A DNA stretch of 64,000 bases from Eledone cirrhosa (Eukaryota). Where the stretch lies: assembly GCA_964016885.1 (NCBI GenBank), contig OZ024740.1, positions 333,684,001 to 333,748,000 of the forward strand, given 5' to 3'. Positions 9,800 through 64,000 of the stretch are shown here, piece by piece; position 1 is the first letter of the stretch; each line of letters starts with the position of its first letter. A program made the translations under genes and the position numbers. A model generated the notes under the pieces. The model saw nothing but the letters and a program-made list of their open reading frames with translations. It did not search any database and was not told the origin of the DNA.

Positions 9800-10013
9800 A
9801 ATATAGACCAGCATTAAATAAGGTTTAATATACATTATGTCAACACCATAATATGATATACACACAAACACATAACACCTTCTACTTTAGAAAATAAAAA
9901 CCCGAACTAAATAAACCTTAACATACGTTTGCACTGACAATACAACAGAACAAATACGAATAAGTAAGGAAAATATGTTCATTCAAAAATATTCCTACTA
10001 AAGGAATCATTTT

Positions 10014-10065
<52 letters not shown>

Positions 10066-10204
10066 ATATATATATATATGTATTCTCTTCATCTTAACAT
10101 GCTAACCATACTCCCACACATATAACACCCATACACACACATAACACCCATATACACACACACACAACTCCCTGCCCCATTTCTACTAATCATCTTCCAA
10201 TACA

Positions 10205-10850
10205 CACACACACACACACACAAGCACACAAATAAACATACATATCTTTACTTCAATAGCAAATCTGAACTCTGACACCCCAGCGAACTAACCATATTCA
10301 CTGTACGAGAACAATTCTCCCAATCCCATTTCTCTTGACCACTATCTTTCCCTTGTCATAACATTCTCTATAAAGGCTACAGAATAGATTTCCAAATAAG
10401 GGCGCAAAAATGTAATGAAAACTTGTTCACGTGACAGCCAAATTTCATTTATAACCAATCACATGACGTTTATTAAAAAAAAGCCTTCGTGAGCCACCTT
10501 TTTTTAAAGTAAAGAAATTGAAACACACACACAACACACGCACACACACACGCAAATAAACATACATATCTTTACATTCTTTATTCAATAGAAAATCTGA
10601 ATTCTGACACCCCAGCGAACTAACCATATTCACTGAACCAGAACAATTCTCCCATCCCTTTCTCTTGACCATTATCTTTCACTTATCATAAAATTCTCTA
10701 AAAAGGCTACAGAATGGATTTCCAAATAAGGGCACGAAAATTTAATGAAAACTTGTTCACGTGACAGCCATAATTTCATTTATAACCAACCAAAAAAAAG
10801 CCTTCGTGAGCCCCTTTTTTCAAGTAAAAAGAAATTCAAACACTCATATA
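10205..10850 (+). repeat. ~330-bp tandem duplication in the PLE 3' region
   Basis: aatctgaa(c/t)tctgacaccccagcgaactaacc...gtgacagcca recurs at ~10263 and ~10594. A second ~60-bp duplication pairs 9735-9797 with 9927-9990. Confidence 0.8.
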
Positions 10851-11057
10851 TGAAAAAACAACCTGTGACAACCCCCCCTCTTATTCGAAGAACTATTGTA
10901 ACGCGAACTGGCGCGAAATTTATTATAATTATTGACAAACCAATCAAATTAATTCTCGAAAAACCTGGCATTTCGAGCCACTTTTTCCATATAAAACAAG
11001 TAACATTCAGAGACCAACCAGATGTGAGAAAAAGCACAGACCCTCCATCTCAACTCA

Positions 11058-11095
11058 CCTTTTGAAAAGCAGAAGTACTGCGAAACCGGTAAAGG
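11058..11095 (+). ncRNA. Minimal type I hammerhead ribozyme (U3:A8) ending the second PLE
   Basis: cctt-TTGAAAA-gcag(aagta)ctgc-GAAA-ccgg-TA^aagg, palindromic stem III accggt, AATAAA at 11101. Confidence 0.8.
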
Positions 11096-11231
11096 AACCA
11101 AATAAATATATATATTTTTTAAAAAAATAAGACTTCAGTTGCATTTTCGATTTCATCTCTTTTTCTTTATACTTTCACTCGTCTCGTGTAGGACACCTTG
11201 GTTATTTTTCATTTTGTAAAAAAAACCGCAC

Positions 11232-11320
<89 letters not shown>

Positions 11321-11900: not shown

Positions 11901-12479
11901 ATATTAATAATAATAATGTCCGTTTACAATTGTTTCGCTACTCTATATGATCTTTCTGGATCAGATGACTATATATCATAAGTGATCTTGTTCAGTTGAA
12001 AATAATTAACCTATGTGAAAGACAGAGCGATTCATCGGAACTTCAAAGGAATATAAATTAAAATAATGAGAGAATGTTACATAATATAATGTTCCATATA
12101 TTGGTTTTCACTATGGTGTCTTGCTTGCATCAGTTTTCACCCATAATCAAGCAGTATTCATCTATCGAGGCTCGATTGTGTAAGATCTTCCTATGGGTAA
12201 CAAGATGGTTGCCAAAGGACATATTTACCTTACTAATTAGAGGGTGGTTTCAGGGAAGTAACTCCTCGAGAGATTAGAAATTGTGGGTATTTATACTTAT
12301 GTGCTAATTTTTAAATGTTTTAATTGAGAGACAATGTAGGGGAGGTAACTCATAATTATCTAAGTTGTTCATAGCTATTTAACTAATTAGCTACAAGTAA
12401 AAATGGGGCTAGATGACTAAGTTGGGTCAAATATTCTATTGGCGAAGGAATTAGCCCTTCGATGTTGACAGCTAATAGT

Positions 12480-14725
12480 TACCTCCGTTCTATAGTTAAT
12501 CGGTAGAGGTCCTGATAGAGTTATGTAATATGCTTCGGTAATACAGAGATCACAAGATTTTCTTCGTCCATTGACCGGTTGGGCCCTAGACACGATATCC
12601 CATTTTAGTGAGTGTTGAACGTTGCTTAATTTAAGGTTTTTAATGAGCCTAGCTAGCGATGTCGAACATCTGTTGCTAGGGTCTCGGAAGGAAAAAGAGC
12701 GCGCGTTATAGCGTACTTTAAAAGGGTTAGAGGTAGACCCGATATAAGAGCTGGTATTCGAAGCAGTTTTAACCGTGCATCTATTGACTATGTTGGGTGT
12801 CAGGCAGTGTCCATTTAATGAGTATGCATTGGGGTAACGGCAGTTGCTTCTGCGGTTAGTGAGAGTAGGGTAGTTTAACCTAAGCGGTAGGTCACTGCTA
12901 GAATGATTAGATGGGGGAGGTGTGCTACTAGAGTAATTATTGGTGTAGTGGCGTGGTGTATTTGATAGGGGTGGTGGTACCGCGGTCTGGGAGTTTTACT
13001 GTCTTAGTTTATGATGGTTACTGAATGCGATGTGGCTAGCTAGGTTAGGTATTGTGGAGAATGAGATTTTAATGTTATTTTTATTAAACAGTTTGTAATA
13101 TATATGTGTGTGGAGGGGGGGGTGTTTAGATAGGATAGAGAAGAAGCGTTTGGGGATATTAGTGGCTAGATTAGATGAGAATGGGGGGGTTAAGCCAGGT
13201 GATATTTCTAGGTCTATTCCTTCTAGGGGTTCTAGTGGAGTTGGTAGGGGCCTTCCTAGGGTTATTATTACCTGGGCATTTGTTATTTGTCATCCCATTT
13301 CTCATTCTTATTCTAGGGTTGATTTTTAGTTTGCTACTTGGAGTGGGGAGCAGGCCGCTGCCACCATTAAACTTCCATGTATAGGTGCTGTTACTGCTAA
13401 AATTCCTGCGAATCTGGCTATATGCTAAGGTATTTCTAGTTCTAGTGTTAAGTTTATTATGGTGAATTGCTGTGTTATGGCATTTAGGTGTGTAATAAAG
13501 TGATTGTTCATAACCAGATTCAGAAAGAGCCTTATTATAATATTGTGCATGATTTATAAATATCTCCTCATTTGCTGATAGCATTGAGATCCTATACGAG
13601 AGTTTTGATTACTGCTCTGATGACTGCCGGTGGGTGTTTAGAGTGTGGGCTAATATATGTGAGTATTTCTCCTGGTTTATGGTAAGGGTAATATAGGTTA
13701 TTGTTGAGATCCAGGGTGAAGTCTAGGAAGTTTACTACTTTATGTTTCGGCTCGATGGGGATAGAGTGACCGTTATTTTTAAAGAATCTATATAATTGTT
13801 TTTTTAGCAAATCGATGCCCCGATTAGTGCAATTGTTGACTGCAAATAGGGCGTCGTCCCTGTATATTCCGCCTTGCAAGGGTTGGATTTCGGCTCTGAT
13901 GTTATGTAATATGTAAATTCCAACTAAATCGGTGATTTGCGCGGAGGCACTTGAGCCCATCGTAATGTCAAAATTGTCCGTTCTATCTTTTCTAGTCCAG
14001 AGTGCTCCGTTGAATTCAATGATAGTCTGCCTAGCCATAAGTATGATGTTAATTTCCTTATTGGTTATGTCCGAGTTGGTGCTGGCTAGGGTTAATGCTT
14101 TGTTGAGCAGTTCCGGGGTTATTGACGCGTAGCTGTAGATGTCAAATTGGATGAACTTCATAGATTCTTTGGATCTTAGATCGGAGAACCATCTAATGAG
14201 TTGGCCGGTGTTGGACCAAAAATTGTAGGTGATATCATCCCGTAGCCCAGGGATTATCCTATCAAGGATTTTCTTACTGATGCGGCCCAGTTCAGATGTG
14301 GTTGGGCTTATAAGTCTAATAGATGGGTTCTCTATAAAGTTTGGCTTATGATCTTTGAGAGAGAACCTTGGGGTTGTTGGTACATAAGGGTGGGTAAATC
14401 TATCCAGATGCAAGTCCTTAACCAAAGCCTGGGCTTTTCGGTTAAGTACGTTTACACTGGAGGGTATAGTTTTTTTATAGTTTCTATTGAGTTCTTTAAG
14501 AAGGAAAGAGTTGTAAGTTTCAGGAGTCATGGTGTATAGATTTTTAGTTTTGTCAGACATAACATGTAAGAGGTGGCTATCTTTAAATTTTGTTATAGTT
14601 GTTGCTAATTTAGTGAGGAAATTATTATTGTGTCTATAATGCTTTTTAAATATAATGCTCCTGACGAAGTTGAATAGATCTTTCTCAAAAGGGTCCAGCA
14701 GGATTTTGTGTGGGGGGTTCTTGCA
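12480..14725 (-). pseudogene. PLE RT + GIY-YIG, degraded
   Basis: SIRLISP, FIQFDI, ITMGS, GIYRDD, VNFLD. The endonuclease reads NGHCLTPNIV...SYIGSTSNPFKVRYN...LKWDIV...CDLCITE. Confidence 0.88.
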
Positions 14726-14947
14726 TTTACTTCCCCTGAAACCACCCTCTAATTAGTAAGGTAAATATGTCCTTTAGCAGACATCTTGTTACACATAGGC
14801 AGATCTCACACAATGCAGCTTCCACAGATGAATACTGCTTGATTATGGCTGACAACTGATGCAACCAAAACACCATAGTGAAAACCAATATATGGAACAT
14901 TACCTTATGTAACATTCTCTCATTATTTTAATTTATATTCCTTTGAA

Positions 14948-15269: not shown

Positions 15270-16300
15270 AAGTAGAATTGGAGCTCTGAAATAGCAATAT
15301 ATAATTGGATGTATATATAATGTATTTTGCAATACACTTGAAGCTTAATTATAAGCATTTTGAAGACCGTATGCTATTGTTTTAGAGTAGTGACAAATTC
15401 ACTTACTTTAATCTCAGCAAACAGGGGAGATTTAGTTAAGCAAAACAAGACCACACATTTCACAAGGAAAACATTATTAAAAGATTGTCAACATATTTTA
15501 GTTTGATGTAAGGAATGTAGAGAATAATAATAATAATAATATTAATAATAATAATGTCCGTTTGCTGAGATTAAAGTAAGTGAATTTGTCACTACTCTAA
15601 TAGTCTTCAAAATGCTTTTAATTAAGCATAAAGTGTATTGCAAAATACATTATATATACATCCATATATATATTACTATTTCAGAGCTCCAATTCTAATT
15701 TTTAATTTCTGCCTGACCAACAATCGCTCTGTATAATCAGTTCCTGATTATTTACTAGAATTCTATAAGAATATAACATCAGTAATCTCAGTAGACAGGA
15801 GGAGTAGTTAGCCTTGATAAGCTTCAACAAAAGCGAAACAAGGACTTGTCTGCTTATCTCGCCTGTTTGCTGAGATTAAAGTAAGTGAATTTGTCACTAC
15901 TCTAAAACAATAGCATACGGTCTTCAAAATGCTTTTAATTAAGCATAAATTGTATTGCAAAATACATTATATATACATCCATATATATATTGCTATTTCA
16001 GAGCTCCAATTCTATTTTTTTTATTTCTGCCTTACCAACAATCGCTCTGTATTATCAGTTCCTGATTATTTACTAGAATTCTATAAGAATATAACATCAG
16101 TAATCTCAGTAGACAGGAGGAGTAGTTAGCCTTGATAAGCTTCAACAAAAGCGAAACAAGGCCTTGTCGGCTTATCTCCCCTGTTTGCTGAGATTAAAGT
16201 AAGTGAATTTGTCACTACTCTAAAACGATAGCATACGGTCTTCAAAATGCTTTTAATTAAGCATAAAGTGTATTGCAAAATACATTATATATACATCCAT
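15262..16300 (+). repeat. 318-bp tandem repeat (~2.3 units) with one hammerhead per unit and an inverted 5' segment
   Basis: Units run 15564-16300 with period 318. 15262-15430 is an inverted unit fragment. Flanked by (TA)n. Confidence 0.88.
16128..16172 (+). ncRNA. Type I hammerhead ribozyme (U3:A8); mutated sister copy at 15810-15854
   Basis: agcc-TTGATAA-gctt(caacaa)aagc-GAAA-caaggccttg-TC^ggct, palindromic stem III acaaggccttgt. Confidence 0.8.
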
Positions 16301-17070
16301 ATATATATATATATATATATTTATTTATATATATATTTACGCAAACACTTCATATCTGTTCGACACGCAGTGACTAACAACAGAATGTTTTAAGACTGCG
16401 TTTTTGACATATATGCGTAGCTTGTCAATAAATAAATTTGAAGGGGTGTCGCTGGTCGTGGTGATGATCGCTTCCAAACATGTTTTGTAATGTATCGTCT
16501 TATTGGTTAATCTCATCGTCTTATTGGCTAATCAACCAACGATAGTAAGTGTTGCTCAAAAGCATCCGCCATTTTGTTTGCACGTTTATTTATCGTTTCG
16601 CTTTCGAATCTTCCTACTTTATTTCGTCGGTTATCATCGAAATATTTTTCTCGTTTGGGTAAGTTATATTGTTAATTTATATATGATTTTTAAAATTTAT
16701 ATTAACTATTTTTTTTTTCAGTTCGTTATAACATGCTTATAATATTGGTTGTATCATATTTACTTGTATATTTGCCCATAGTATTGTTCTTTTTATGTTA
16801 GTTATTTTATTATTATTATGTTAGACTATTTGTATGTAATATTTAATTTTATAAATTCACTATAACAATTATTATGTAAAATATATTTATTTAATATTGA
16901 TTGTGTTTTGTAGTTGTTTATATTAAGAGTGTGCAAATATTTTTATACATCTTACAATAATATTTATAACATCATTTATAAAATAACAATTATATAATCT
17001 AATTACATTACAACGATAATGTATTATTAATATATATATCATGTTTAACTAGAGTTATTACAAGCGTTGC

Positions 17071-30671: not shown

Positions 30672-32595
30672 TGGAGAAATGTCTCCCTAGGCCCACAAGT
30701 ACCATAAAATATTCAACAGGCAGACGGTGAAACTTTCCTACTCAACCACACGCTCCGTAGCCCAGCACATAGCTGGCATACATAGGAATAGGCTCAATGC
30801 ATCTAATACCACCGTAAACCCCGGATCCACCCAGCAGAACCAGCGCGTGGGACGCAACGTAACCCGGACAGGCCCAACTAGCACACCGGAACCCAACGAC
30901 CCTGTGCTGATTACGGAGGCTACCCAGCCAACCCTGAGTGATGGTAACCACGCGATACATGTGGTGGGCTTAAGAATTCATGTAATTGCAGAGACCCATC
31001 ACTGTGCCCCCTTAATAATGAATGCATGACGAAAAACATGGTCTACATGTGCAAGGTCACAACCCCTAACTCGGAGCACCATTACATAGGATCCACAGCG
31101 ACGAGCTTCAAAGATCGGTGGTATAACCATCGCCATTCCTTTAACAGAATATATAAAAGGAAGTGTACGGCCCTTTCTGAATTGATCTGGAAGCTCAAAC
31201 TTTAAAATACCCCGGACTTTCTGGTCTGGTCCGTGGTTAGAAAGGTTCCCCCAGACAGAGGCGGGTCTGGAATTTTCAACCTCTGTCTTAGTGAGACACA
31301 CGAGATTGTTCATGGCGGAACTAAGTTATTAAACAGAAGTGCGGAGTTATTCGGTGCCTGCAGACAATTAAGGACGGGAACTTTCCTCAAGCTATATGGA
31401 TAAACCCCGGTTACGGCCTCCCACAACGCTCCCTCCCATGTAGGTCCCCTACACCCTGTACTAATGACCAATGGACAACAACAACCACCCATAGTTTGTG
31501 GTCCCTATGGTGGATGGTCCACCGGATCCTCTACTGGTTAGGAGTCATCTAAACCACGTTTTATTGAACCTGATTTTATATATATATGTATATATGTATC
31601 ATGTGTATATATATATATTTTATATGTGTATATATGTGTACTTTATGTATGTATATATATGTATATATATTATATATATATGTATATGTATGTGTATTTT
31701 ATATATATATATATGTATGTATGTTTTATGTGTGTATATATTTTATGTATGTGTGTATTTTATGTATATATATTTTTTTAATATTTTTATATCTATATAT
31801 TTTATATATATGTATGTTCTGTGTATATATGTATATATTTTATATATATATATATATATGTATGCTTGTGCGTACATACATGCATGCGTGTATATATATA
31901 CACACCTGTATGGATTTGTGTGTGTACATGTGTGAGTGTCTGAGGGGGGTAGGTGTGAGTGTATGTACAAGTCAACCAGCATAAACCTTTTATTTCTAAA
32001 TTTTCTAAACTATCTAAGTATTGGACTCTAACCATTATTTTAAGTATTACTCCCCACCCCCTTTTGTATGTGTGGATGTGTGTCTGTGAAGGTGGGTGTG
32101 AGTTTAGTGCAAGCCAACCTACATAAGTCTTTTCATTTGTAAATGTTCTACTCCAACCATAAATTTCAGTAGCACCACTCCACGTAAATTCCTAAATTTA
32201 AGAATGACCTGTAGTATATATTAATACTATTAACCCTAATTGAATATATATCTGACCAGGAATGCCTTTTGTGAAAATCAGTCATATGGAACTATTGTCA
32301 TCTTGCCTGACGGTTTGAACTTTACAAAACCACCTGCCTCTTTGAGGTCAAATACCAACCCTTCTACCATCTACAAACTGACCAATGAGAATCAAGACTA
32401 TTGCTGCTGACAATATTGATTTATTCCTAACAAGCTCATATGTCCCAAGGCTCTGATACCATCAACACTATAAACACAGAGCTGGCATATCTAAGAACTG
32501 ACTAACTGCCTGATGAGGTCATAGCCATTCAATGGCTATCATCGAAATATATATAGCAGTAAATAAAGGATAAATTGACTTATGTTTCGTCACTA
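30672..32595 (+). mobile_element. PLE 3' fragment (GIY-YIG domain, long 3' region, hammerhead)
   Basis: KLSYSTT...CNCRDPSLCPLNNECMTKNMVYMCKV...HYIGSTATSFKDRWYNHRHSF at ~30730-31145. HHR near the end. Confidence 0.8.
32505..32560 (+). ncRNA. Canonical type I hammerhead ribozyme
   Basis: actgc-CTGATGA-ggt(c)atagccat(tca)atggctat(c)atc-GAAA-tatata-TA^gcagt, AATAAA directly downstream. Confidence 0.85.
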
Positions 32596-34794: not shown

Positions 34795-37170
34795 CTATCC
34801 GTTAGGGTATAACGTGGGGCTGTAATACAGGAAAGTTTTGTGCAATTTATGTTTACAAGCCGAAATTGCCTCAGAATTTTTGTTTAAGATGTGGTCTGTA
34901 GCGTAGAGTATTTCCAGGGCCTCAGCGGCGCAGAGGTCACATGGTCTTTTATTTTCGTTATACGATCTAGCCCTAGCTAGGATCTCCCAGTGTAACTTAT
35001 ATTGGGTGTGGTTGTCTTTTAGACTCCAGATATAAGCTGAAAGTGACGTCATATTCCTTCTTAAATTTATCCTGGTATTTAAATAGCCGAGCTTCTCAAG
35101 GGGTAATTCCATATATGGTCAAAGTGATTGTCAAAAGGATTGGTCACAAGTTAGTAGTAATTCTGTGATGGCAAATTAGTGGGGGAAGAGGTAGCTAAAC
35201 CTGCCAGTAGGAAAAAAAGGGGAGGGGGTGGAGTAGACCCATTCATGCGTTGGTAGTGCCGGCTACAGCTGGGCGAGAGGTCAAAGAAGATACTAGGGAG
35301 GGGGAGGGGGAGGAAGTCGAAACGGTAGGTAGAACAATGAAGGGTAAATATATATAAATAAAAAATACTGAGTGATAAAAAGCGAATAAATGTAAAGAAA
35401 AAAATAAGCAATTTCTACGACCTAAGTCTCTCGCTATTGCTAGGCTAAATAAATAAATAAATAAGTAAATAAAAAAAAAAAATAAAAAAAAAAAATAAAT
35501 AAATAAATAAACTAGGTGGGACGGTATAAGAAGGGACCCTTTTAAGAGTTCTAAGTACGTATATCATATGGTGACGGGTCAACAAGGGGGGGGGGGGGGG
35601 CAAAATACTAAAGAAACTACCACGAAATAATTAATAAAGGTTTCTACCCAGGCACAAGGCCAGCAACCACCCAGTGCAGAAAAGTAAATTAGAACGAAAT
35701 AATAATTCAGAGTCCCGAAAAAAATATACTAATGCTGACTCTAAGGGTACCGCCACGCTACGAAAGTTCTTATACAAGCTACAAGAAAGTTCGTACGAAG
35801 TAAAAGTAAAATACGGAAAATTAATTCAGAATCCCTCCCCCCCCCCCCCCCCCCCCCCCCCGCCCAAAAGAAAAGAGAAGTAAGAAATACTGAATAAACG
35901 AGAAATTTAAAGCAAAGATGCCACTAAGAGATATAGAAGGTACGGAAATAAAGGGGCAGCGGTCGGATAAGGGGGCAAGTATCCGAGGTCTAACACAACT
36001 GCTATAAAAAGCGGAGTCCGCCAAATCTATCATAGAATAGGGGAGGGGGTGGGGGTACTGAGGCTACAAGGGGCCGAGGGGCTGCCTCGAGTGAGCGAGA
36101 AAAAGACGCCGACAAAGAAAAAGAACTGGGGTAGAAGGACTAGGGAGGGATGGGGAGAAGAAGGAAATATAGAGGAAGCGATAAAAGAATATAAAAGAAG
36201 ATCTTACGTCTCCCTTGGCAAGCAGGAATTACCCATTACAAAATCGGCAAGTGGGGTGTTATAGCCCTAGTCTACCCCCACCCCGGGTCATTGTGGAGTT
36301 TGAGGGCGAGGTAAGTCCTACGCAATCTGTGTTTACATGCAGTAACCAGTTCATCTTTTTTGTTTAGGAGTTGGTCCATCGAAAACAGCATTTGTAAAGT
36401 TTCCTCCGAGCATAAATTGCACGGACAGCGTCCTCCCGTGTAAGAGTTGGCTCTGGACAGTAATCTCCAAGTGAGATCATAGGTGATGTTGTTGTCCTTG
36501 AGGTCCCATTATTGGCCCGAAAGTGTAGTGGCGTGACACCGGGCCGGGTTTCGGAAGGTATGTCTGCGTTAGTATAGCCGGGTCTTGAAGTCACATGCGG
36601 TTAATCCTATATAAGCTTTGTTGGAGGTGTCCGTCCTCACGTTGCACTGGTAGATCACATTACGGTCTCTGCATCTGTTGTCGAGGGGGAAAATGGATCT
36701 ATCAGGACAGTTGCACCTCCTGGTCGGCTCTCCACTGCTATTTAGGTTATTTCTTCCATCGGGGTTGAGTTTTTTGTTGTTGGAGAAGACGATGTTTTGT
36801 GCGAAGTTTGGTGTAGTGCTGTAAGAGAGTTTGTTGGTATTTTTGTTAATTATGTTGTGGTAGCGGTGTTGTAGTGGGAAGTGTTTTTCAAAGAGCCTAA
36901 AGAATAACTTCCCGATGGGAGTTGTCACCTTTGCGTTGTGGGGAGGATTGAACCATGTTACAATGCGTGAGCGGCGGTGACAATCACTTTGACCATATAT
37001 GGAATTACCCCTTGAGAAGCTCGGCTATTTAAATACCAGGATAAATTTTCATTTAGTCCATAATTAGCCGTCGAAACGGCTTGAGCTCAGCCGTCGGGTC
37101 TTACTGGTTCCTATTACCCACTCTACTACCCTAAGTATTGAGTACGTTGGCGCGTTATGGTCCACCTGGT
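34795..37170 (-). mobile_element. Composite PLE remnant: two GIY-YIG fragments plus an inverted terminal repeat
   Basis: CNCPDRSIFPLDNRC..NVIYQCNV..AYIGLTACDFKTRLY (36569-36928) and TSLSAYIWSLK..WEIL..CDLCAAE (34795-35065). A ~80-bp inverted repeat pairs 35065-35133 with 36978-37047. Confidence 0.8.
37008..37098 (+). ncRNA. Type I hammerhead ribozyme (U3:A8) with enlarged stem II and long stem III
   Basis: ccc-TTGAGAA-g..cggcta[loop]tagccg-tc-GAAA-cggct(tgagctc)agccg-TC^ggg, predicted cleavage after 37095. Confidence 0.6.
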
Positions 37171-52547: not shown

Positions 52548-53418
52548 TGTGTGTGTGCGTGTGTGTATGTGTGCATGTCACACCTCTATTTTAGAGAGAA
52601 AAAATGCCGACCCGCCTGGCCAAGCGTGCGAAAGAAAAGAATTACGCACAGGTCAAACGGGAAGAAGGAGGAGGAGGAGAGGTAGTAACAGAGAATGAGT
52701 GAGTGAAGAGTGAGGAAGAGGCTAACAGAGAGAGTGACTGCTAGAGAGGGTAAAGATACAGAGAAAGGGGAAGCAGTAAGAACGAAATAGACGGGTAACA
52801 GCAGGGGAAAACATATGTGTAAATATGAGAATAAACGTGCTGCGGGATTGTTAATGGGTTACATATGAATAAAGTTAGTCCTTCATCAGTGATCTTCCAA
52901 CCATCATTGGTATTTCATCGCTTTAAAGACCATATACCTCCGGTTGGTGCGAGCAACGGCTAAAAAAAGCCGTTGGGACACGTAAATAAAGGGGACATGA
53001 GTGTAAACAAACAAAAATGGTGAAGCAACGAAAAGTGAGGAAGAACGAGTCAAGTGCCAAATTTCTATGAATTTAAATTCGGTGAAATCGTGAACGAGAG
53101 AGAATAAAGACCATCAAACCTGGTTTAAATGTGAGCAAGGAAGGAATTTCGCACAGGTCTAACGGGAGGAAGAAGGGGTCTAGTCTGAATTCGGTAAACA
53201 TAAGTTCTGTGAAATGGTAGACGAGAGAGAGAAAAAATGCCGACCGGCCTGGCCAAGCGTGCGGTGGATGAAGTGTTGTATGTGTCTAATGCATCTTTCA
53301 CTGCATTTTGGTGCGTTGACAGCTATCCTTGCGTTGGGTTGTTAAGTTTTTTTCAACTCTCTCTCTCTCTCTGCCTATGTATATACACACACACACATAT
53401 GTATATATATATATATAT

Positions 53419-54870
53419 ATAATTAAGTTAAAGTGTACATCTACATATGTATACGGAAGTACTAGTATGCATATAAATACACACATGCATACATATGTAC
53501 ATGTACTGAGTTTTTCACTAGACACTTTACAGTGAGTGTCCAGCTAGTCTGTATGTAACCACACAGACGGACCGGGTTTTAGAGTCATACGAGTTTTCAA
53601 GGAAACACATTTCCTCTATTCTCCAGAGAGCCAGACAGGAATATTGGACTAGTTTCGATGTTATTACATCTCATCAGCAATATATACCCATCTTCCGGCT
53701 TCTCTAGAGAATTGTAAAAGCACATATCGTTATATGCTTTTTCTATGAAAATTAGTAGTGGGTAGACTAATTTGCATAGAACGTGAGTCATTGTACGCAC
53801 CGGTTCAGCGGAAACGATAAAAACAAATAACGAAACGAAATTAAATTTCGTTTCGCTTCTAACTCACTTTTGTATGACTGACGCTTAAATAATTAAGTTA
53901 AAGTGTACATCTACATATGTATACGGAAGTACTAGTATGCATATAAATACACACATGCATACATATGTACATGTACTGAGTTTTTCACTAGACACTTTAC
54001 AGTGAGTGTCCAGCTAGTCTGTATGTAACCACACAGACGGACCGGGTTTTAGAGTCATACGAGTTTTCAAGGAAACACATTTCCTCTATTCTCCAGAGAG
54101 CCAGACAGGAATATTGGACTAGTTTCGATGTTATTACATCTCATCAGCAATATATACCCATCTTCCGGCTTCTCTAGAGAATTGTAAAAGCACATATCGT
54201 TATATGCTTTTTCTATGAAAATTAGTAGTGGGTAGACTAATTTGCATAGAACGTGAGTCATTGTACGCACCGGTCCAGCGGAAACGATAAAAACAAATAA
54301 CGAAACGAAATTAAATTTCGTTTCGCTTCTAACTCACTTTTGTATGACTGACGCTTAAATAATTAAGTTAAAGTGTACATCTACATATGTATACGGAAGT
54401 ACTAGTATGCATATAAATACACACATGCATACATATGTACATATACTGAGTTTTTCACTAGACACTTTACAGTGAGTGTCCAGCTAGTCTGTATGTAACC
54501 ACACAGACGGACCGGGTTTTAGAGTCATACGAGTTTTCAAGGAAACACATTTCCTCTATTCTCCAGAGAGCCAGACAGGAATATTGGACTAGTTTCGATG
54601 TTATTACATCTCATCAGCAATATATACCCATCTTCCGGCTTCTCTAGAGAATTGTAAAAGCACATATCGTTATATGCTTTTTCTATGAAAATTAGTAGTG
54701 GGTAGACTAATTTGCATAGAACGTGAGTCATTGTACGCACCGGTTCAGCGGAAACGATAAAAACAAATAACGAAACGAAATTAAATTTCGTTTCGCTTCT
54801 AACTCACTTTTGTATGACTGACGCTTAAATAATTAAGTTAAAGTGTACATCTACATATGTATACGGAAGT
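53419..54870 (-). repeat. Inverted arm of the 470-bp hammerhead satellite (~3.1 units)
   Basis: Reverse complement of the downstream array. HHRs at 53641-53683, 54111-54153 and 54581-54623. Confidence 0.97.
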
Positions 54871-57800
54871 GTGTATTTATATGCATACTAGTACTTCCGT
54901 ATACATATGTAGATGTACACTTTAACTTAATTATTTAAGCGTCAGTCATACAAAAGTGAGTTAGAAGCGAAACGAAATTTAATTTCGTTTCGTTATTTGT
55001 TTTTATCGTTTCCGCTGAACCGGTGCGTACAATGACTCACGTTCTATGCAAATTAGTCTACCCACTACTAATTTTCATAGAAAAAGCATATAACGATATG
55101 TGCTTTTACAATTCTCTAGAGAAGCCGGAAGATGGGTATATATTGCTGATGAGATGTAATAACATCGAAACTAGTCCAATATTCCTGTCTGGCTCTCTGG
55201 AGAATAGAGGAAATGTGTTTCCTTGAAAACTCGTATGACTCTAAAACCCGGTCCGTCTGTGTGGTTACATACAGACTAGCTGGACACTCACTGTAAAGTG
55301 TCTAGTGAAAAACTCAGTACATGTACATATGTATGTATGTGTGTATTTATATGCATACTAGTACTTCCGTATACATATGTAGATGTACACTTTAACTTAA
55401 TTATTTAAGCGTCAGTCATACAAAAGTGAGTTAGAAGCGAAACGAAATTTAATTTCGTTTCGTTATTTGTTTTTATCGTTTCCGCTGAACCGGTGCGTAC
55501 AATGACTCACGTTCTATGCAAATTAGTCTACCCACTACTAATTTTCATAGAAAAAGCATATAACGATATGTGCTTTTACAATTCTCTAGAGAAGCCGGAA
55601 GATGGGTATATATTGCTGATGAGATGTAATAACATCGAAACTAGTCCAATATTCCTGTCTGGCTCTCTGGAGAATAGAGGAAATGTGTTTCCTTGAAAAC
55701 TCGTATGACTCTAAAACCCGGTCCGTCTGTGTGGTTACATACAGACTAGCTGGACACTCACTGTAAAGTGTCTAGTGAAAAACTCAGTACATGTACATAT
55801 GTATGCATGTGTGTATTTATATGCATACTAGTACTTCCGTATACATATGTAGATGTACACTTTAACTTAATTATTTAAGCGTCAGTCATACAAAAGTGAG
55901 TTAGAAGCGAAACGAAATTTAATTTCGTTTCGTTATTTGTTTTTATCGTTTCCGCTGAACCGGTGCGTACAATGACTCACGTTCTATGCAAATTAGTCTA
56001 CCCACTACTAATTTTCATAGAAAAAGCATATAACGATATGTGCTTTTACAATTCTCTAGAGAAGCCGGAAGATGGGTATATATTGCTGATGAGATGTAAT
56101 AACATCGAAACTAGTCCAATATTCCTGTCTGGCTCTCTGGAGAATAGAGGAAATGTGTTTCCTTGAAAACTCGTATGACTCTAAAACCCGGTCCGTCTGT
56201 GTGGTTACATACAGACTAGCTGGACACTCACTGTAAAGTGTCTAGTGAAAAACTCAGTACATGTACATATGTATGCATGTGTGTATTTATATGCATACTA
56301 GTACTTCCGTATACATATGTAGATGTACACTTTAACTTAATTATTTAAGCGTCAGTCATACAAAAGTGAGTTAGAAGCGAAACGAAATTTAATTTCGTTT
56401 CGTTATTTGTTTTTATCGTTTCCGCTGAACCGGTGCGTACAATGACTCACGTTCTATGCAAATTAGTCTACCCACTACTAATTTTCATAGAAAAAGCATA
56501 TAACGATATGTGCTTTTACAATTCTCTAGAGAAGCCGGAAGATGGGTATATATTGCTGATGAGATGTAATAACATCGAAACTAGTCCAATATTCCTGTCT
56601 GGCTCTCTGGAGAATAGAGGAAATGTGTTTCCTTGAAAACTCGTATGACTCTAAAACCCGGTCCGTCTGTGTGGTTACATACAGACTAGCTGGACACTCA
56701 CTGTAAAGTGTCTAGTGAAAAACTCAGTACATGTACATATGTATGCATGTGTGTATTTATATGCATACTAGTACTTCCGTATACATATGTAGATGTACAC
56801 TTTAACTTAATTATTTAAGCGTCAGTCATACAAAAGTGAGTTAGAAGCGAAACGAAATTTAATTTCGTTTCGTTATTTGTTTTTATCGTTTCCGCTGAAC
56901 CGGTGCGTACAATGACTCACGTTCTATGCAAATTAGTCTACCCACTACTAATTTTCATAGAAAAAGCATATAACGATATGTGCTTTTACAATTCTCTAGA
57001 GAAGCCGGAAGATGGGTATATATTGCTGATGAGATGTAATAACATCGAAACTAGTCCAATATTCCTGTCTGGCTCTCTGGAGAATAGAGGAAATGTGTTT
57101 CCTTGAAAACTCGTATGACTCTAAAACCCGGTCCGTCTGTGTGGTTACATACAGACTAGCTGGACACTCACTGTAAAGTGTCTAGTGAAAAACTCAGTAC
57201 ATGTACATATGTATGCATGTGTGTATTTATATGCATACTAGTACTTCCGTATACATATGTAGATGTACACTTTAACTTAATTATTTAAGCGTCAGTCATA
57301 CAAAAGTGAGTTAGAAGCGAAACGAAATTTAATTTCGTTTCGTTATTTGTTTTTATCGTTTCCGCTGAACCGGTGCGTACAATGACTCACGTTCTATGCA
57401 AATTAGTCTACCCACTACTAATTTTCATAGAAAAAGCATATAACGATATGTGCTTTTACAATTCTCTAGAGAAGCCGGAAGATGGGTATATATTGCTGAT
57501 GAGATGTAATAACATCGAAACTAGTCCAATATTCCTGTCTGGCTCTCTGGAGAATAGAGGAAATGTGTTTCCTTGAAAACTCGTATGACTCTAAAACCCG
57601 GTCCGTCTGTGTGGTTACATACAGACTAGCTGGACACTCACTGTAAAGTGTCTAGTGAAAAACTCAGTACATGTACATATGTATGCATGTGTGTATTTAT
57701 ATGCATACTAGTACTTCCGTATACATATGTAGATGTACACTTTAACTTAATTATTTAAGCGTCAGTCATACAAAAGTGAGTTAGAAGCGAAACGAAATTT

Positions 57801-60800
57801 AATTTCGTTTCGTTATTTGTTTTTATCGTTTCCGCTGAACCGGTGCGTACAATGACTCACGTTCTATGCAAATTAGTCTACCCACTACTAATTTTCATAG
57901 AAAAAGCATATAACGATATGTGCTTTTACAATTCTCTAGAGAAGCCGGAAGATGGGTATATATTGCTGATGAGATGTAATAACATCGAAACTAGTCCAAT
58001 ATTCCTGTCTGGCTCTCTGGAGAATAGAGGAAATGTGTTTCCTTGAAAACTCGTATGACTCTAAAACCCGGTCCGTCTGTGTGGTTACATACAGACTAGC
58101 TGGACACTCACTGTAAAGTGTCTAGTGAAAAACTCAGTACATGTACATATGTATGCATGTGTGTATTTATATGCATACTAGTACTTCCGTATACATATGT
58201 AGATGTAAACTTTAACTTAATTATTTAAGCGTCAGTCATACAAAAGTGAGTTAGAAGCGAAACGAAATTTAATTTCGTTTCGTTATTTGTTTTTATCGTT
58301 TCCGCTGAACCGGTGCGTACAATGACTCACGTTCTATGCAAATTAGTCTACCCACTACTAATTTTCATAGAAAAAGCATATAACGATATGTGCTTTTACA
58401 ATTCTCTAGAGAAGCCGGAAGATGGGTATATATTGCTGATGAGATGTAATAACATCGAAACTAGTCCAATATTCCTGTCTGGCTCTCTGGAGAATAGAGG
58501 AAATGTGTTTCCTTGAAAACTCGTATGACTCTAAAACCCGGTCCGTCTGTGTGGTTACATACAGACTAGCTGGACACTCACTGTAAAGTGTCTAGTGAAA
58601 AACTCAGTACATGTACATATGTATGCATGTGTGTATTTATATGCATACTAGTACTTCCGTATACATATGTAGATGTACACTTTAACTTAATTATTTAAGC
58701 GTCAGTCATACAAAAGTGAGTTAGAAGCGAAACGAAATTTAATTTCGTTTCGTTATTTGTTTTTATCGTTTCCGCTGAACCGGTGCGTACAATGACTCAC
58801 GTTCTATGCAAATTAGTCTACCCACTACTAATTTTCATAGAAAAAGCATATAACGATATGTGCTTTTACAATTCTCTAGAGAAGCCGGAAGATGGGTATA
58901 TATTGCTGATGAGATGTAATAACATCGAAACTAGTCCAATATTCCTGTCTGGCTCTCTGGAGAATAGAGGAAATGTGTTTCCTTGAAAACTCGTATGACT
59001 CTAAAACCCGGTCCGTCTGTGTGGTTACATACAGACTAGCTGGACACTCACTGTAAAGTGTCTAGTGAAAAACTCAGTACATGTACATATGTATGCATGT
59101 GTGTATTTATATGCATACTAGTACTTCCGTATACATATGTAGATGTACACTTTAACTTAATTATTTAAGCGTCAGTCATACAAAAGTGAGTTAGAAGCGA
59201 AACGAAATTTAATTTCGTTTCGTTATTTGTTTTTATCGTTTCCGCTGAACCGGTGCGTACAATGACTCACGTTCTATGCAAATTAGTCTACCCACTACTA
59301 ATTTTCATAGAAAAAGCATATAACGATATGTGCTTTTACAATTCTCTAGAGAAGCCGGAAGATGGGTATATATTGCTGATGAGATGTAATAACATCGAAA
59401 CTAGTCCAATATTCCTGTCTGGCTCTCTGGAGAATAGAGGAAATGTGTTTCCTTGAAAACTCGTATGACTCTAAAACCCGGTCCGTCTGTGTGGTTACAT
59501 ACAGACTAGCTGGACACTCACTGTAAAGTGTCTAGTGAAAAACTCAGTACATGTACATATGTATGCATGTGTGTATTTATATGCATACTAGTACTTCCGT
59601 ATACATATGTAGATGTACACTTTAACTTAATTATTTAAGCGTCAGTCATACAAAAGTGAGTTAGAAGCGAAACGAAATTTAATTTCGTTTCGTTATTTGT
59701 TTTTATCGTTTCCGCTGAACCGGTGCGTACAATGACTCACGTTCTATGCAAATTAGTCTACCCACTACTAATTTTCATAGAAAAAGCATATAACGATATG
59801 TGCTTTTACAATTCTCTAGAGAAGCCGGAAGATGGGTATATATTGCTGATGAGATGTAATAACATCGAAACTAGTCCAATATTCCTGTCTGGCTCTCTGG
59901 AGAATAGAGGAAATGTGTTTCCTTGAAAACTCGTATGACTCTAAAACCCGGTCCGTCTGTGTGGTTACATACAGACTAGCTGGACACTCACTGTAAAGTG
60001 TCTAGTGAAAAACTCAGTACATGTACATATGTATGCATGTGTGTATTTATATGCATACTAGTACTTCCGTATACATATGTAGATGTACACTTTAACTTAA
60101 TTATTTAAGCGTCAGTCATACAAAAGTGAGTTAGAAGCGAAACGAAATTTAATTTCCTTTCGTTATTTGTTTTTATCGTTTCCGCTGAACCGGTGCGTAC
60201 AATGACTCACGTTCTATGCAAATTAGTCTACCCACTACTAATTTTCATAGAAAAAGTATATAACGATATGTGCTTTTACAATTCTCTAGAGAAGCCGGAA
60301 GATGGGTATATATTGCTGATGAGATGTAATAACATCGAAACTAGTCCAATATTCCTGTCTGGCTCTCTGGAGAATAGAGGAAATGTGTTTCCTTGAAAAC
60401 TCGTATGACTCTAAAACCCGGTCCGTCTGTGTGGTTACATACAGACTAGCTGGACACTCACTGTAAAGTGTCTAGTGAAAAACTCAGTACATGTACATAT
60501 GTATGCATGTGTGTATTTATATGCATACTAGTACTTCCGTATACATATGTAGATGTACACTTTAACTTAATTATTTAAGCGTCAGTCATACAAAAGTGAG
60601 TTAGAAGCGAAACGAAATTTAATTTCGTTTCGTTATTTGTTTTTATCGTTTCCGCTGAACCGGTGCGTACAATGACTCACGTTCTATGCAAATTAGTCTA
60701 CCCACTACTAATTTTCATAGAAAAAGCATATAACGATATGTGCTTTTACAATTCTCTAGAGAAGCCGGAAGATGGGTATATATTGCTGATGAGATGTAAT

Positions 60801-63800
60801 AACATCGAAACTAGTCCAATATTCCTGTCTGGCTCTCTGGAGAATAGAGGAAATGTGTTTCCTTGAAAACTCGTATGACTCTAAAACCCGGTCCGTCTGT
60901 GTGGTTACATACAGACTAGCTGGACACTCACTGTAAAGTGTCTAGTGAAAAACTCAGTACATGTACATATGTATGCATGTGTGTATTTATATGCATACTA
61001 GTACTTCCGTATACATATGTAGATGTACACTTTAACTTAATTATTTAAGCGTCAGTCATACAAAAGTGAGTTAGAAGCGAAACGAAATTTAATTTCGTTT
61101 CGTTATTTGTTTTTATCGTTTCCGCTGAACCGGTGCGTACAATGACTCACGTTCTATGCAAATTAGTCTACCCACTACTAATTTTCATAGAAAAAGCATA
61201 TAACGATATGTGCTTTTACAATTCTCTAGAGAAGCCGGAAGATGGGTATATATTGCTGATGAGATGTAATAACATCGAAACTAGTCCAATATTCCTGTCT
61301 GGCTCTCTGGAGAATAGAGGAAATGTGTTTCCTTGAAAACTCGTATGACTCTAAAACCCGGTCCGTCTGTGTGGTTACATACAGACTAGCTGGACACTCA
61401 CTGTAAAGTGTCTAGTGAAAAACTCAGTACATGTACATATGTATGCATGTGTGTATTTATATGCATACTAGTACTTCCGTATACATATGTAGATGTACAC
61501 TTTAACTTAATTATTTAAGCGTCAGTCATACAAAAGTGAGTTAGAAGCGAAACGAAATTTAATTTCGTTTCGTTATTTGTTTTTATCGTTTCCGCTGAAC
61601 CGGTGCGTACAATGACTCACGTTCTATGCAAATTAGTCTACCCACTACTAATTTTCATAGAAAAAGCATATAACGATATGTGCTTTTACAATTCTCTAGA
61701 GAAGCCGGAAGATGGGTATATATTGCTGATGAGATGTAATAACATCGAAACTAGTCCAATATTCCTGTCTGGCTCTCTGGAGAATAGAGGAAATGTGTTT
61801 CCTTGAAAACTCGTATGACTCTAAAACCCGGTCCGTCTGTGTGGTTACATACAGACTAGCTGGACACTCACTGTAAAGTGTCTAGTGAAAAACTCAGTAC
61901 ATGTACATATGTATGCATGTGTGTATTTATATGCATACTAGTACTTCCGTATACATATGTAGATGTACACTTTAACTTAATTATTTAAGCGTCAGTCATA
62001 CAAAAGTGAGTTAGAAGCGAAACGAAATTTAATTTCGTTTCGTTATTTGTTTTTATCGTTTCCGCTGAACCGGTGCGTACAATGACTCACGTTCTATGCA
62101 AATTAGTCTACCCACTACTAATTTTCATAGAAAAAGCATATAACGATATGTGCTTTTACAATTCTCTAGAGAAGCCGGAAGATGGGTATATATTGCTGAT
62201 GAGATGTAATAACATCGAAACTAGTCCAATATTCCTGTCTGGCTCTCTGGAGAATAGAGGAAATGTGTTTCCTTGAAAACTCGTATGACTCTAAAACCCG
62301 GTCCGTCTGTGTGGTTACATACAGACTAGCTGGACACTCACTGTAAAGTGTCTAGTGAAAAACTCAGTACATGTACATATGTATGCATGTGTGTATTTAT
62401 ATGCATACTAATACTTCCGTATACATATGTAGATGTACACTTTAACTTAATTATTTAAGCGTCAGTCATACAAAAGTGAGTTAGAAGCGAAACGAAATTT
62501 AATTTCGTTTCGTTATTTGTTTTTATCGTTTCCGCTGAACCGGTGCGTACAATGACTCACGTTCTATGCAAATTAGTCTACCCACTACTAATTTTCATAG
62601 AAAAAGCATATAACGATATGTGCTTTTACAATTCTCTAGAGAAGCCGGAAGATGGGTATATATTGCTGATGAGATGTAATAACATCGAAACTAGTCCAAT
62701 ATTCCTGTCTGGCTCTCTGGAGAATAGAGGAAATGTGTTTCCTTGAAAACTCGTATGACTCTAAAACCCGGTCCGTCTGTGTGGTTACATACAGACTAGC
62801 TGGACACTCACTGTAAAGTGTCTAGTGAAAAACTCAGTACATGTACATATGTATGCATGTGTGTATTTATATGCATACTAGTACTTCCGTATACATATGT
62901 AGATGTACACTTTAACTTAATTATTTAAGCGTCAGTCATACAAAAGTGAGTTAGAAGCGAAACGAAATTTAATTTCGTTTCGTTATTTGTTTTTATCGTT
63001 TCCGCTGAACCGGTGCGTACAATGACTCACGTTCTATGCAAATTAGTCTACCCACTACTAATTTTCATAGAAAAAGCATATAACGATATGTGCTTTTACA
63101 ATTCTCTAGAGAAGCCGGAAGATGGGTATATATTGCTGATGAGATGTAATAACATCGAAACTAGTCCAATATTCCTGTCTGGCTCTCTGGAGAATAGAGG
63201 AAATGTGTTTCCTTGAAAACTCGTATGACTCTAAAACCCGGTCCGTCTGTGTGGTTACATACAGACTAGCTGGACACTCACTGTAAAGTGTCTAGTGAAA
63301 AACTCAGTACATGTACATATGTATGCATGTGTGTATTTATATGCATACTAGTACTTCCGTATACATATGTAGATGTACACTTTAACTTAATTATTTAAGC
63401 GTCAGTCATACAAAAGTGAGTTAGAAGCGAAACGAAATTTAATTTCGTTTCGTTATTTGTTTTTATCGTTTCCGCTGAACCGGTGCGTACAATGACTCAC
63501 GTTCTATGCAAATTAGTCTACCCACTACTAATTTTCATAGAAAAAGCATATAACGATATGTGCTTTTACAATTCTCTAGAGAAGCCGGAAGATGGGTATA
63601 TATTGCTGATGAGATGTAATAACATCGAAACTAGTCCAATATTCCTGTCTGGCTCTCTGGAGAATAGAGGAAATGTGTTTCCTTGAAAACTCGTATGACT
63701 CTAAAACCCGGTCCGTCTGTGTGGTTACATACAGACTAGCTGGACACTCACTGTAAAGTGTCTAGTGAAAAACTCAGTACATGTACATATGTATGCATGT

Positions 63801-64000
63801 GTGTATTTATATGCATACTAGTACTTCCGTATACATATGTAGATGTACACTTTAACTTAATTATTTAAGCGTCAGTCATACAAAAGTGAGTTAGAAGCGA
63901 AACGAAATTTAATTTCGTTTCGTTATTTGTTTTTATCGTTTCCGCTGAACCGGTGCGTACAATGACTCACGTTCTATGCAAATTAGTCTACCCACTACTA
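54871..64000 (+). repeat. 470-bp tandem array (>=19.4 units, runs off the window), hammerhead-containing, retrozyme-like
   Basis: Exact 470-bp period (the ORF track repeats every 470). Only isolated substitutions seen. Confidence 0.98.
55140..55182 (+). ncRNA. Canonical minimal type I hammerhead ribozyme, repeated at 55140+470k (k=0..18)
   Basis: atattg-CTGATGA-gatgt(aata)acatc-GAAA-ctag-TC^caatat: 6-bp stem I, 5-bp stem II, palindromic stem III actagt, GUC cleavage after 55176. Confidence 0.93.

Follow-up and report, generated by a model that had tools for sequence, protein, structure and literature searches.

A two-armed hammerhead retrozyme insertion in Eledone cirrhosa, consistent with rolling reverse transcription of an edited circular RNA by a Penelope-like element protein

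Sequence evidence supports the view that the 470-bp array in Eledone cirrhosa is one insertion of a very numerous, non-coding, non-LTR retrozyme family. It is probable that this retrozyme is non-autonomous and depends on a (TA)n-targeting Penelope-like element (PLE) protein, with an ADAR-edited monomer circle being copied from two fixed sites. The retrozyme class itself is known, and the mechanistic record preserved in this genome appears to be new.

The locus lies at the end of the 64,000-nucleotide stretch analysed here (the window). Tandem Repeats Finder recovered the 470-bp unit in both arms: 3.1 copies (99% matches) at 53419..54870, and 19.5 copies (99% matches) in an inverted array running from about 54870 to the window end. 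Beyond the window, the array continues for 8 further full units and then gives way to (TA)n. The whole insertion, of about 14.3 kb, thus comprises a left arm of 1,452 bp (3.1 units) on the minus strand and a right arm of 26 full and 2 partial units on the plus strand (54869..64000, continuing past the window), with 10 differences from its own consensus. The arms meet by their 5´ ends at 54869..54870, with a 2-nt overlap. The initial annotation had described a 470-bp satellite; the tandem 470-bp units stand, but they did not grow in place, being the product of one two-armed insertion.

Unit positions 1–470 are numbered from cleavage site to cleavage site on a reference monomer (55647..56116, plus strand). 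The inner 5´ ends correspond to position 187 in the left arm and about 165 in the right arm. The outer 3´ end of the left arm is placed at about 228 (the "short" end A), and the right arm terminates past the window at about 298 (the "long" end B, with a 70-nt tail). This tail separates end A from end B and contains a 13-bp hairpin; the putative pair of reverse-transcription start sites would fall within 55872..55946 on the plus strand (end A 226–230, end B 296–300). Both ends of the insertion sit within (TA)n, the left in a tract at 53400..53418 and the right about 3.7 kb past the window, with no target-site duplication (TSD) discernible there. The unit has a GC content of about 36% and no LTR pair. 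Its longest stop-free frame is 88 codons, with no RT + GIY-YIG open frame, in agreement with the lack of credible coding function noted earlier, and a tRNA search found none. The unit had also been thought unusually long for an animal retrozyme, but 470 bp falls inside the published range of 51–972 bp (10.64898/2026.07.22.740005).

A structure-aware motif scan confirmed 22 identical, intact type I hammerheads in the window, one per unit, with 19 on the plus strand and 3 on the minus strand, representing the two arms of one insertion event. The first plus-strand hammerhead (55131..55189; core 55146-55152) has an extended stem I with an internal loop, a stem II at 55153-55166 with a 4-nt loop, and a stem III of 2 bp with a palindrome. 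Cleavage is predicted after 55176 and then every 470 bp. The minus-strand hammerheads, located at 54574..54632, 54104-54162 and 53634-53692, have predicted cleavage sites after 54587, 54117 and 53647, respectively. The Rfam/Infernal check proposed in the initial annotation returned hammerhead similarity (Hammerhead_HH9, 32.9 bits, E 3.2e-6), but nothing reached the gathering score, which is 52 for this model (clan CL00010); because all core positions are present, the low score bears only on Rfam membership. The miRNA and snoRNA matches in the same scan were discarded as AT-hairpin noise. A separate, unrelated hammerhead occurs in the window at 32510.

Across three subfamilies, 96.6% of cells in the ribozyme are paired and 6 pairs show two-sided changes, a pattern that points to a ribozyme under selection. 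The monomer folds at -165 kcal/mol (z -13.9 versus 100 shuffles), and the circle is predicted to be branched and highly paired.

The family is dispersed through the 3.0-Gb genome, where at least 2,373 insertion ends were counted, along with 9,249 exact copies of the hammerhead core. For end B, searches retrieved 2,373 exact junctions; for end A of subfamily 1 the figure was 331, and the reversed-pattern controls gave 0. Before counting, 8 duplicate loci were removed, and 7 clustered end-A matches on C2 were left out of the locus set; since some longer loci are incomplete, long arrays are under-sampled. The insertions consist of two inverted arms in (TA)n, with ends at about 228 and 298 of the unit. 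One A and one B end were found in 38 of 39 complete two-arm loci. When loci were chosen by end A alone (n = 60), 41 had a B end opposite, 1 had an A end, 15 were single-armed and 3 were not reached. These data bear out the retrozyme identity first suggested (consecutive, dispersed, non-coding type I hammerhead units of 470 bp with GC below 50%) and exclude a single-locus array, with thousands of loci present. The varying start phases that had been anticipated hold for the inner 5´ ends, but not for the 3´ ends, which are fixed at two sites. No match to the unit was detected in phage sequences, nor the hammerhead pattern in metagenome contigs.

The studied insertion shows the "tail" signature of PLEs: a tail at one end, an inverted 5´-truncated arm and a microsatellite target. 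In PLEs, the tail has been described as the stretch between two reverse-transcription start sites, with both DNA strands being extended (PMC11167929). Autonomous PLEs co-occur in this genome with the dispersed retrozyme family. One of them, with intact frames and a 775-aa RT+GIY-YIG protein, displays the same two-arm anatomy in 24 of 26 resolved loci, its ends lying about 66 nt apart. Protein comparisons confirmed the RT+GIY-YIG identity of this candidate without naming its clade; its CX4CxxC linker would place it in the Neptune/Nematis type, following PMC8557442. It carries no canonical hammerhead. Among the loci fetched, no PLE with sequence homology to the unit, or carrying it, was found, and end B shows only a weak short-motif likeness to one PLE end. 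The intact two-ORF PLE has its anatomy in common with the retrozyme, but not its sequence. A survey of (TA)n junctions revealed several other end pairs, with other (TA)n-targeting families having ends 45–90 nt apart, so the tail length does not single out the candidate PLE as the helper. PLE-type mobilisation, as originally proposed, is supported by the fixed A and B ends, the (TA)n target and the anatomy held in common with the autonomous PLE.

At 19 common polymorphic sites, the two arms of an insertion carry the same haplotype in 57 of 62 loci, whereas 3,351 of 3,771 arm pairs drawn from different loci disagree. This comparison supports the use of one template per insertion event. The inner ends are uniform round the unit (190 ends from 95 loci, KS p 0.72), with only 1/190 within 3 nt of the cleavage site, and 397 of 401 junction crossings occur without an indel. 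The reverse transcriptase apparently did not stop at the ribozyme, and the inner ends ignore the cleavage site. An alternative template would be a cleaved, unligated monomer ringed by stem I, with the enzyme jumping from the 5´ end to the 3´ end at each turn. Template jumping is a known behaviour of non-LTR reverse transcriptases, and such a ring would account for unit-identical edits (see below) as well as a covalent circle does. However, the exactness of nearly all crossings argues against it, as does the lack of an inner-end pile-up at the cut, when the autonomous PLE has 24 inner ends within 17 nt of one place; this reading is quite improbable.

The rolling reverse transcription of a covalently closed monomer circle is further suggested by marks of RNA editing. 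Among locus-private fixed variants, A>G changes on the ribozyme strand account for 15 of 38, compared with 54 of 545 singletons (Fisher 5e-6); in subfamily 1 alone, the values are 7/24 and 50/474 (p 0.013). Fixed variants include 15 A>G against 4 T>C (p 0.019), but counting each locus once brings this to 11:4 (p 0.12). Three hyper-edited loci, which are rare in the family, were retrieved with A>G-bearing patterns. In L237, 17 A>G changes are identical in every unit of both arms, and U or A is the 5´ neighbour of 16 of them. Only 3 sites vary among the full units of L237, and no other occurrence of its edited signature was found in the searches. L240 has 11 rare A>G changes common to its 2 full units, its partial third unit being identical where it overlaps, and L241 shows 53 A>G within one pass over the junction. 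The edit sites of L237 and L241 overlap at 9/17 (P 0.11). Mirror T>C searches, run at two sites only, gave no multi-change units (0/7 units; 0 doublets).

The studied locus carries a candidate ADAR edit of its template, an A>G at unit position 159 (55805, plus strand), present in all 30 exact-matching units of both arms and in no other array of the assembly, with 2 stray units elsewhere. More generally, four genome-wide tests looked for a source array of insertion-wide fixed variants; three found none in the assembly, and in the fourth the other array with the variant was the hyper-edited L237. With C>T not enriched (3/38), selection for G–U wobble does not account for the excess of A>G and was rejected; GC-biased conversion was dismissed as well, being strand-symmetric. 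The pattern is consistent with editing by ADAR of a monomeric circle that a PLE reverse transcriptase then copied over and over. Together with the even inner ends and the exact crossings, the unit-identical edits lend genomic support to the rolling mode of copying that the initial annotation had put forward.

Two further explanations are affected by these results. Ordinary satellite or DNA-level amplification of a PLE end, through unequal exchange or extrachromosomal DNA circles and with the hammerhead simply carried along, would be in line with the blocks of common variants that later exchange leaves in long arrays, and the local amplification of PLE termini has been proposed (10.64898/2026.07.22.740005). 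It is confronted by the dispersal of the family over thousands of loci, whose two fixed ends lie in (TA)n, by strand-specific A>G clusters, which require an RNA template, by the compensatory changes in the ribozyme and by the absence of the unit sequence from the PLEs at the loci fetched; this reading is already largely refuted and has a minimal probability. Scarcely more probable is a viroid-like replicon also multiplying from RNA to RNA, whose reverse-transcribed snapshots would be the genomic copies. A strongly paired predicted fold and variants lacking a genomic source would suit it, and register-matched variants (see below) could be copying errors in RNA multimers. However, neither the motif scan nor the Rfam scan found an opposite-strand ribozyme in the unit, and editing, or alleles missing from a haploid assembly, provides a better explanation of the source-less variants. 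Nothing supports the autonomous RNA replicon envisaged at the outset.

Some variants run against a pure monomer template. At the studied locus, a C>T at unit position 144 (54443, minus strand, in the left arm) is confined, in each arm, to the second full unit counted from the outer end. Including this locus, variants confined to the same k-th unit of both arms were seen in 5 of 7 informative loci, against an expected 2.1 (permutation P ~0.005). A monomer circle cannot yield such register-matched variants, so either a multi-unit template or later conversion between arms is needed. In overall similarity, register-matched and unmatched units across arms showed no difference when paired (Wilcoxon p 0.83). 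Variants common to a subset of units occur in some short arms as well as in long arrays, which shows that units were indeed duplicated or converted after insertion. For the 27 junction crossings in the right arm of the studied locus, an origin in the insertion event has about even odds.

These observations are among the grounds for a reading in which the PLE inserts at two sites in the same way, but tandem arrays supply its usual template as transcribed linear multimers that stay uncleaved, or as circles of several units. The ribozyme would then be incidental to copying, and homogeneity would arise from later expansion and conversion. Besides the register-matched loci, the strictly alternating units of L238 favour it, the even inner ends and exact junctions are equally compatible with it, and uncleaved RNA was the main in vitro substrate of a PLE, whose ribozyme was not required (PMC11167929). 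On the other hand, L237 and L241 show that edits vary from one molecule to another, yet the tandem units of L237, and likewise those of L240, carry identical edits, and the insertion-wide variants mostly lack a source array. As the usual route it is unlikely, although it may apply to a minority of events.

In the favoured mechanism, based on the monomer circle, tandem genomic copies would be transcribed on the hammerhead strand, as the strand-specific A>G marks indirectly suggest. The hammerheads would excise 470-nt monomers, probably aided by dimer pairing through the palindromic stem III; counting against this step, 8 of 9 Xenopus retrozyme dimers are reported not to cleave (10.64898/2026.07.22.740005). 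The monomers would be ligated into highly paired circles, presumably by RtcB as described in the literature, and ADAR would edit part of the RNAs, judging from the mutation spectrum. Probably acting as a dimer, a PLE RT/GIY-YIG complex would cut both strands of a (TA)n tract. The two DNA ends would each be primed on a single RNA, at one or other of two fixed sites separated by 70 nt; the anatomy of this priming is taken from the sequences analysed here and its enzymology from PMC11167929. How far each reverse transcriptase travels round the circle would vary, with a median of about 1.2 turns, and 0–4-nt microhomology or short filler would join the resulting pair of cDNAs. At a later stage, unequal exchange also lengthens long arrays.

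We consider it somewhat likely that rolling-circle retrotransposition in an animal germline is recorded for the first time in the genomic copies of this family, with a PLE dimer reading an ADAR-barcoded circular ribozyme RNA several times round from two fixed starts, one for either end of a double-strand cut. In that case, RNA edits would become heritable and feed family evolution, a dead-ribozyme unit would lead to a dimer circle and a period-2 array (L238), and the tandem/inverted structure of PLEs would reflect twin priming on one RNA. In the literature covered, both the use of retrozyme circles as templates for genomic copies and the role of PLE enzymes as copiers are still hypothetical, and the origin of the tandem/inverted PLE insertions is unsolved; this young, numerous family appears to display all three at the level of genomic sequence. 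It also provides exact predictions for an in vitro PLE assay that already exists: a (TA)n target, starts on opposite DNA strands at about 228 and 298, and read-through of the ligated junction. The edit-barcode test is applicable to any retrozyme genome. A-to-I edits would be entering the germline genome, and a compact circular RNA cargo for targeted insertion is suggested.

The unit resembles the metazoan non-LTR retrozymes described in PMC7229834 in its non-coding tandem units of a few hundred bp with GC below 50%, one type I hammerhead per unit, thousands of copies and the presence of PLEs in the genome, and its short palindromic stem III recalls those of newt and axolotl. Circles were proposed there as templates for reverse transcription, the circle-to-DNA step being a hypothesis. 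Unlike those retrozymes, as presented in that paper's main text, where the words "inverted", "tail" and "microsatellite" are absent, the family studied here has two inverted arms whose fixed short and long ends lie in (TA)n, a TSD not being discernible, and its ADAR-type marks recur from unit to unit. No retrozyme report of a tail, inverted arms or ADAR-marked copies was found in the literature covered; subscription papers and the supplements of PMC7229834 and of the 2026 preprint, outside that scope, may show such ends. With the Xenopus and vertebrate retrozymes (10.64898/2026.07.22.740005), it has in common a PLE link, a unit length within their range and dispersed monomers to multimers. Their link is based on co-occurrence and pLTR homology, with the mechanism called open, whereas here no homologous pLTR was found in the loci fetched and the link lies in the insertion anatomy.

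As in the EN+ PLEs (Poseidon_Ac, PMC11167929; Neptune, Nematis and Naiad, PMC8557442), two reverse-transcription start sites define a one-ended tail, accompanied by an inverted 5´-truncated copy and an AT-rich or (TA)n target. In contrast to them, the unit has no ORF, its tail is about 70 nt rather than 30–40 bp, and its template appears to be circular, rather than the uncleaved linear RNA used by Poseidon_Ac in vitro (PMC11167929). The Chlamys elements, such as MRC1 (PMC8557442), are likewise non-autonomous PLE dependants with multicopy head-to-tail insertions. However, their 3´ ends are similar to those of their autonomous partners and canonical hammerheads are lacking in most of them, whereas the unit has a ribozyme and no detected partner homology. 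Finally, although its ribozyme is on one strand, its spread proceeds via DNA insertion and nothing points to RNA-to-RNA replication, it shares with viroids and viroid-like circular RNAs the predicted form of a small, highly paired, non-coding circle that is processed by a ribozyme.

The 470-bp tandem unit described in the initial annotation was recovered as an inverted block at window positions 53419-54870 followed by a + block up to the window end, together with the 19 + and 3 − type I hammerheads claimed for it, all identical within the window. Each hammerhead has a complete core; its 6-bp stem I continues beyond an internal loop, stem II measures 5 bp, and stem III, of 2 bp, lies within a 6-nt palindrome. 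The Rfam search proposed in that annotation returned HH9 (32.9 bits, E 3.2e-6), a match whose score lies below the gathering score of HH9. The predicted fold of the monomer is far better than those of shuffled sequences (z −13.9), and its longest coding stretch does not exceed 88 codons, in keeping with the earlier view that it has no credible coding function. The array continues 8 units past the window and terminates in (TA)n; its full length is ~14.3 kb, and 10 differences separate it from its own consensus. Numbering units from the first base past the hammerhead cut (window 55647), a hot spot of singleton changes lies just downstream of the cleavage site, at unit positions 23-26 (window 55669-55672), with 13 singletons at positions 25-26 across 74 loci.

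The genomic record shows a large, dispersed family in the 3.0-Gb assembly containing the window (at contig positions 333684001-333748000; stretches of the assembly are designated L001-L241). The DNA search for dispersed copies yielded at least 212 matches, on many contigs, from the 38 scored of 1,076 candidates. Exact-pattern searches found 9,249 exact hammerhead cores and 2,373 exact matches to the boundary between one end and (TA)n, with 0 for the reversed controls. A second subfamily has ~89% identity, and a third, more distant one, found in the flanks of L056, L066, L092, L036 and L141, has a co-varied hammerhead with a GUA triplet and the two-end anatomy of the focal family, its ends being ~60 nt apart. 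Over 11 distinct hammerheads of the three subfamilies, pairing is kept in 96.6% of cells, with two-sided changes at 6 base pairs and an invariant core and stem III; as these 11 rows are relatives, the covariation total reflects a few events rather than 11.

Loci consist of two arms joined 5´ to 5´, with their 3´ ends facing outward into (TA)n, an anatomy overlooked in the initial annotation. The outer stops fall at unit positions 226-230 in one arm (the short end A) and 296-300 in the other (the long end B). This pair was present in 38/39 complete two-arm loci, some of which had been chosen via one of the ends. Among 60 loci chosen by end A alone, B was opposite in 41 (37 by pattern, 4 by eye), A was opposite in 1, 15 were single-armed and 3 were not reached. 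The focal locus has end A on the left, end B on the right and a 2-nt overlap at the arm junction. Across 95 loci, the junctions show an overlap of 0-4 nt in 54, filler in 25 and a longer overlap in 16. Arms can be tiny, as in the minimal footprint L233, where both ends are present within ~35 bp.

The two arms of a locus point to a single template. Compared at 19 common polymorphic sites, they are concordant in 57/62 loci, with a one-site mismatch in the other 5; 89% of the arm pairs between loci disagree at those sites. The median arm is ~550 nt (74 complete loci), and at least one cleavage site is crossed in 116/148 arms, at least two in 47 and at least three in 16. The inner (5´) ends of the arms are uniform around the unit (190 ends, of which 5 are alignment splits; KS p 0.72), only 1 lying within 3 nt of the cut, and 397/401 crossings of the unit-to-unit junction are free of indels. 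Taken together, the uniform inner ends and exact crossings rule out the cleaved linear monomer as the ordinary template.

A monomeric circle as the template is supported chiefly by A>G changes, counted on the ribozyme strand. Fifteen locus-private variants, from 12/74 loci, are fixed in each of the two arms and in at least two units. Genome-wide tests found no source array for three of the four private variants assayed: 345G (L225), 149G (L045) and, at the focal locus, 159G, whose only carriers are 30 units of that locus and 2 strays. A>G accounts for 15/38 locus-private fixed variants versus 54/545 singletons, which are strand-symmetric. The fourth test led to L237, where 17 changes, all A>G, are the same in every unit of both arms, with a mere 3 differing sites among three full units. 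This signature is confined genome-wide to its own four units, and its search turned up two further loci. In L240, 11 rare A>G recur in two full units and in as much of a third as overlaps them; L241 has 53 A>G in a single pass over the junction. Double-stranded RNA undergoes A-to-I editing with a neighbour preference, inosine being read as G; a 5´ U or A precedes 16/17 sites in L237 (p 0.012) and 45 in L241 (p 0.0003). The patterns of the L237 and L241 molecules differ (overlap at 9/17 sites, P 0.11). Given this difference, identical patterns in tandem units mean that the same nucleotides were read again, supporting the monomeric circle. The A>G marks show that the ribozyme strand was transcribed and used as a template.

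Several observations limit this reading. In 5/7 informative loci (expected 2.1, P about 0.005), a variant occurs in the matching k-th unit of both arms, counted from the outer end inward, and is absent from the others; the focal locus is among them (144T at k2), and none of these variants is A>G. They are consistent with copying from multi-unit templates in some events, and would also be accommodated if the arms had been converted against each other before later expansion; the overall similarity of register-matched units across arms is not raised (p 0.83). Variants common to subsets of units, found in long arrays and a few short arms, indicate that later exchange occurs, and some of the 27 crossings counted in the right arm of the focal locus may not represent turns of the reverse transcriptase. 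As for the editing itself, the A>G:T>C asymmetry is weaker when counted once per locus (11:4, p 0.12), and substitution polarity is less certain for the 22 loci of subfamily 2. Hyper-edited loci are rare: three were detected, all via A>G patterns. Mirror searches, a control spanning two sites only, retrieved 7 units on the basis of a forced T>C, of which 0 had a second one, and 0 TT>CC doublets; the A>G counterpart gave further A>G in 8/20 units (3/14 loci). At the focal locus, editing evidence is limited to the change at 159.

Alternating units were also observed. At L238:998-3441, X and Y units alternate strictly over 2.7 periods, the Y unit having two deletions and a change within the hammerhead core. 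A dimer circle would give this as its expected output, later duplication of a two-unit block being possible too; the odds of coincidence are roughly estimated at 1 in 5. L039 also alternates, with a change in the stem III loop.

The insertion anatomy can be compared to the one in Penelope-like elements (PLEs), for which passages of PMC8557442 describe an inverted 5´-truncated copy with a tail at one end only. In vitro, according to parts of PMC11167929, this tail is the stretch separating two start sites of reverse transcription, cutting and extension take place on both DNA strands, the protein is a predicted dimer, and ribozyme cleavage is dispensable for priming, the last of these telling against the circle reading. 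A young Neptune/Nematis-type PLE lies at window 8539-11237 (+), and also at the L141-L176 loci; it has frames of 409 aa and 775 aa (RT+GIY-YIG), targets (TA)n and carries a 66-nt tail. Many intact 775-aa frames exist in the assembly, together with 2,985 exact short-end junctions, and 24/26 resolved loci (of 30) show the short-plus-long anatomy of the retrozyme, with ends ~66 nt apart. This PLE is a candidate helper of the retrozyme and only that, because no sequence homology to the retrozyme unit and no canonical hammerhead were found in it, and other families have end pairs at similar distances: across all loci, paired fixed ends with a spacing of 45-90 nt, greater than the 30-40-bp tail in the portions of the PLE literature consulted, occur in seven or more further families that target (TA)n. 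Of the inner ends of the candidate PLE, 24 cluster within 17 nt of a single position, ~150 nt upstream of the short end, whereas those of the retrozyme are spread round the unit; the pile-up suggests a fixed RNA 5´ end, set by a start site or an unknown cleavage.

Other repeats in the window include another PLE with two inverted, 5´-truncated arms and RT and GIY-YIG frames (860-4746) and fragments of a further PLE family (12417-14752 on the − strand, 30984-31385, 34831-35049 and 36326-36721). A type I hammerhead that stands alone (32504-32561, +) and whose stem III is an AT palindrome, with relatives at other loci, some as inverted pairs, is probably a PLE end. A 318-bp unit in 2.4 copies (15560-16308), terminating in (TA)n and including a stretch of three stems that resembles a hammerhead with a non-canonical core, is possibly another retrozyme-like family. 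Elsewhere, five loci (L041, L199, L203, L216 and L232) fuse one retrozyme arm to an arm that faces outward and belongs to a different repeat family, with PLE frames in three and complementary end types (short plus long) in 4/4 scored. These are either mixed-template events, from which helpers might be identified, or the outcome of deletions that joined adjacent insertions.

In the mechanism we propose, transcripts would be cleaved by the hammerhead and ligated, a PLE dimer would prime both DNA ends on one RNA, and the two arms would be joined via microhomology. Circle-templated, PLE-driven insertion has been proposed, not demonstrated, in the main texts of PMC7229834 and a 2026 preprint (bioRxiv 10.64898/2026.07.22.740005), the latter reporting, in disfavour of the circle reading, no cleavage in 8/9 Xenopus retrozyme dimers. 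The tail and inverted arms are not described in these main texts or in the available text of PMC7761336, and a literature search retrieved no report of such retrozyme anatomy, which supplements or subscription papers may hold; other retrozymes may have the same anatomy, unnoticed. The value of the family lies in its mechanistic record, which turns an open insertion hypothesis into specific tests. Its identity as a retrozyme is ordinary, the class being already known: it agrees with the non-LTR retrozymes of those two main texts in its testable membership characters. Compared with PLEs, it lacks their coding capacity and any visible resemblance to them, but carries their insertion signature.
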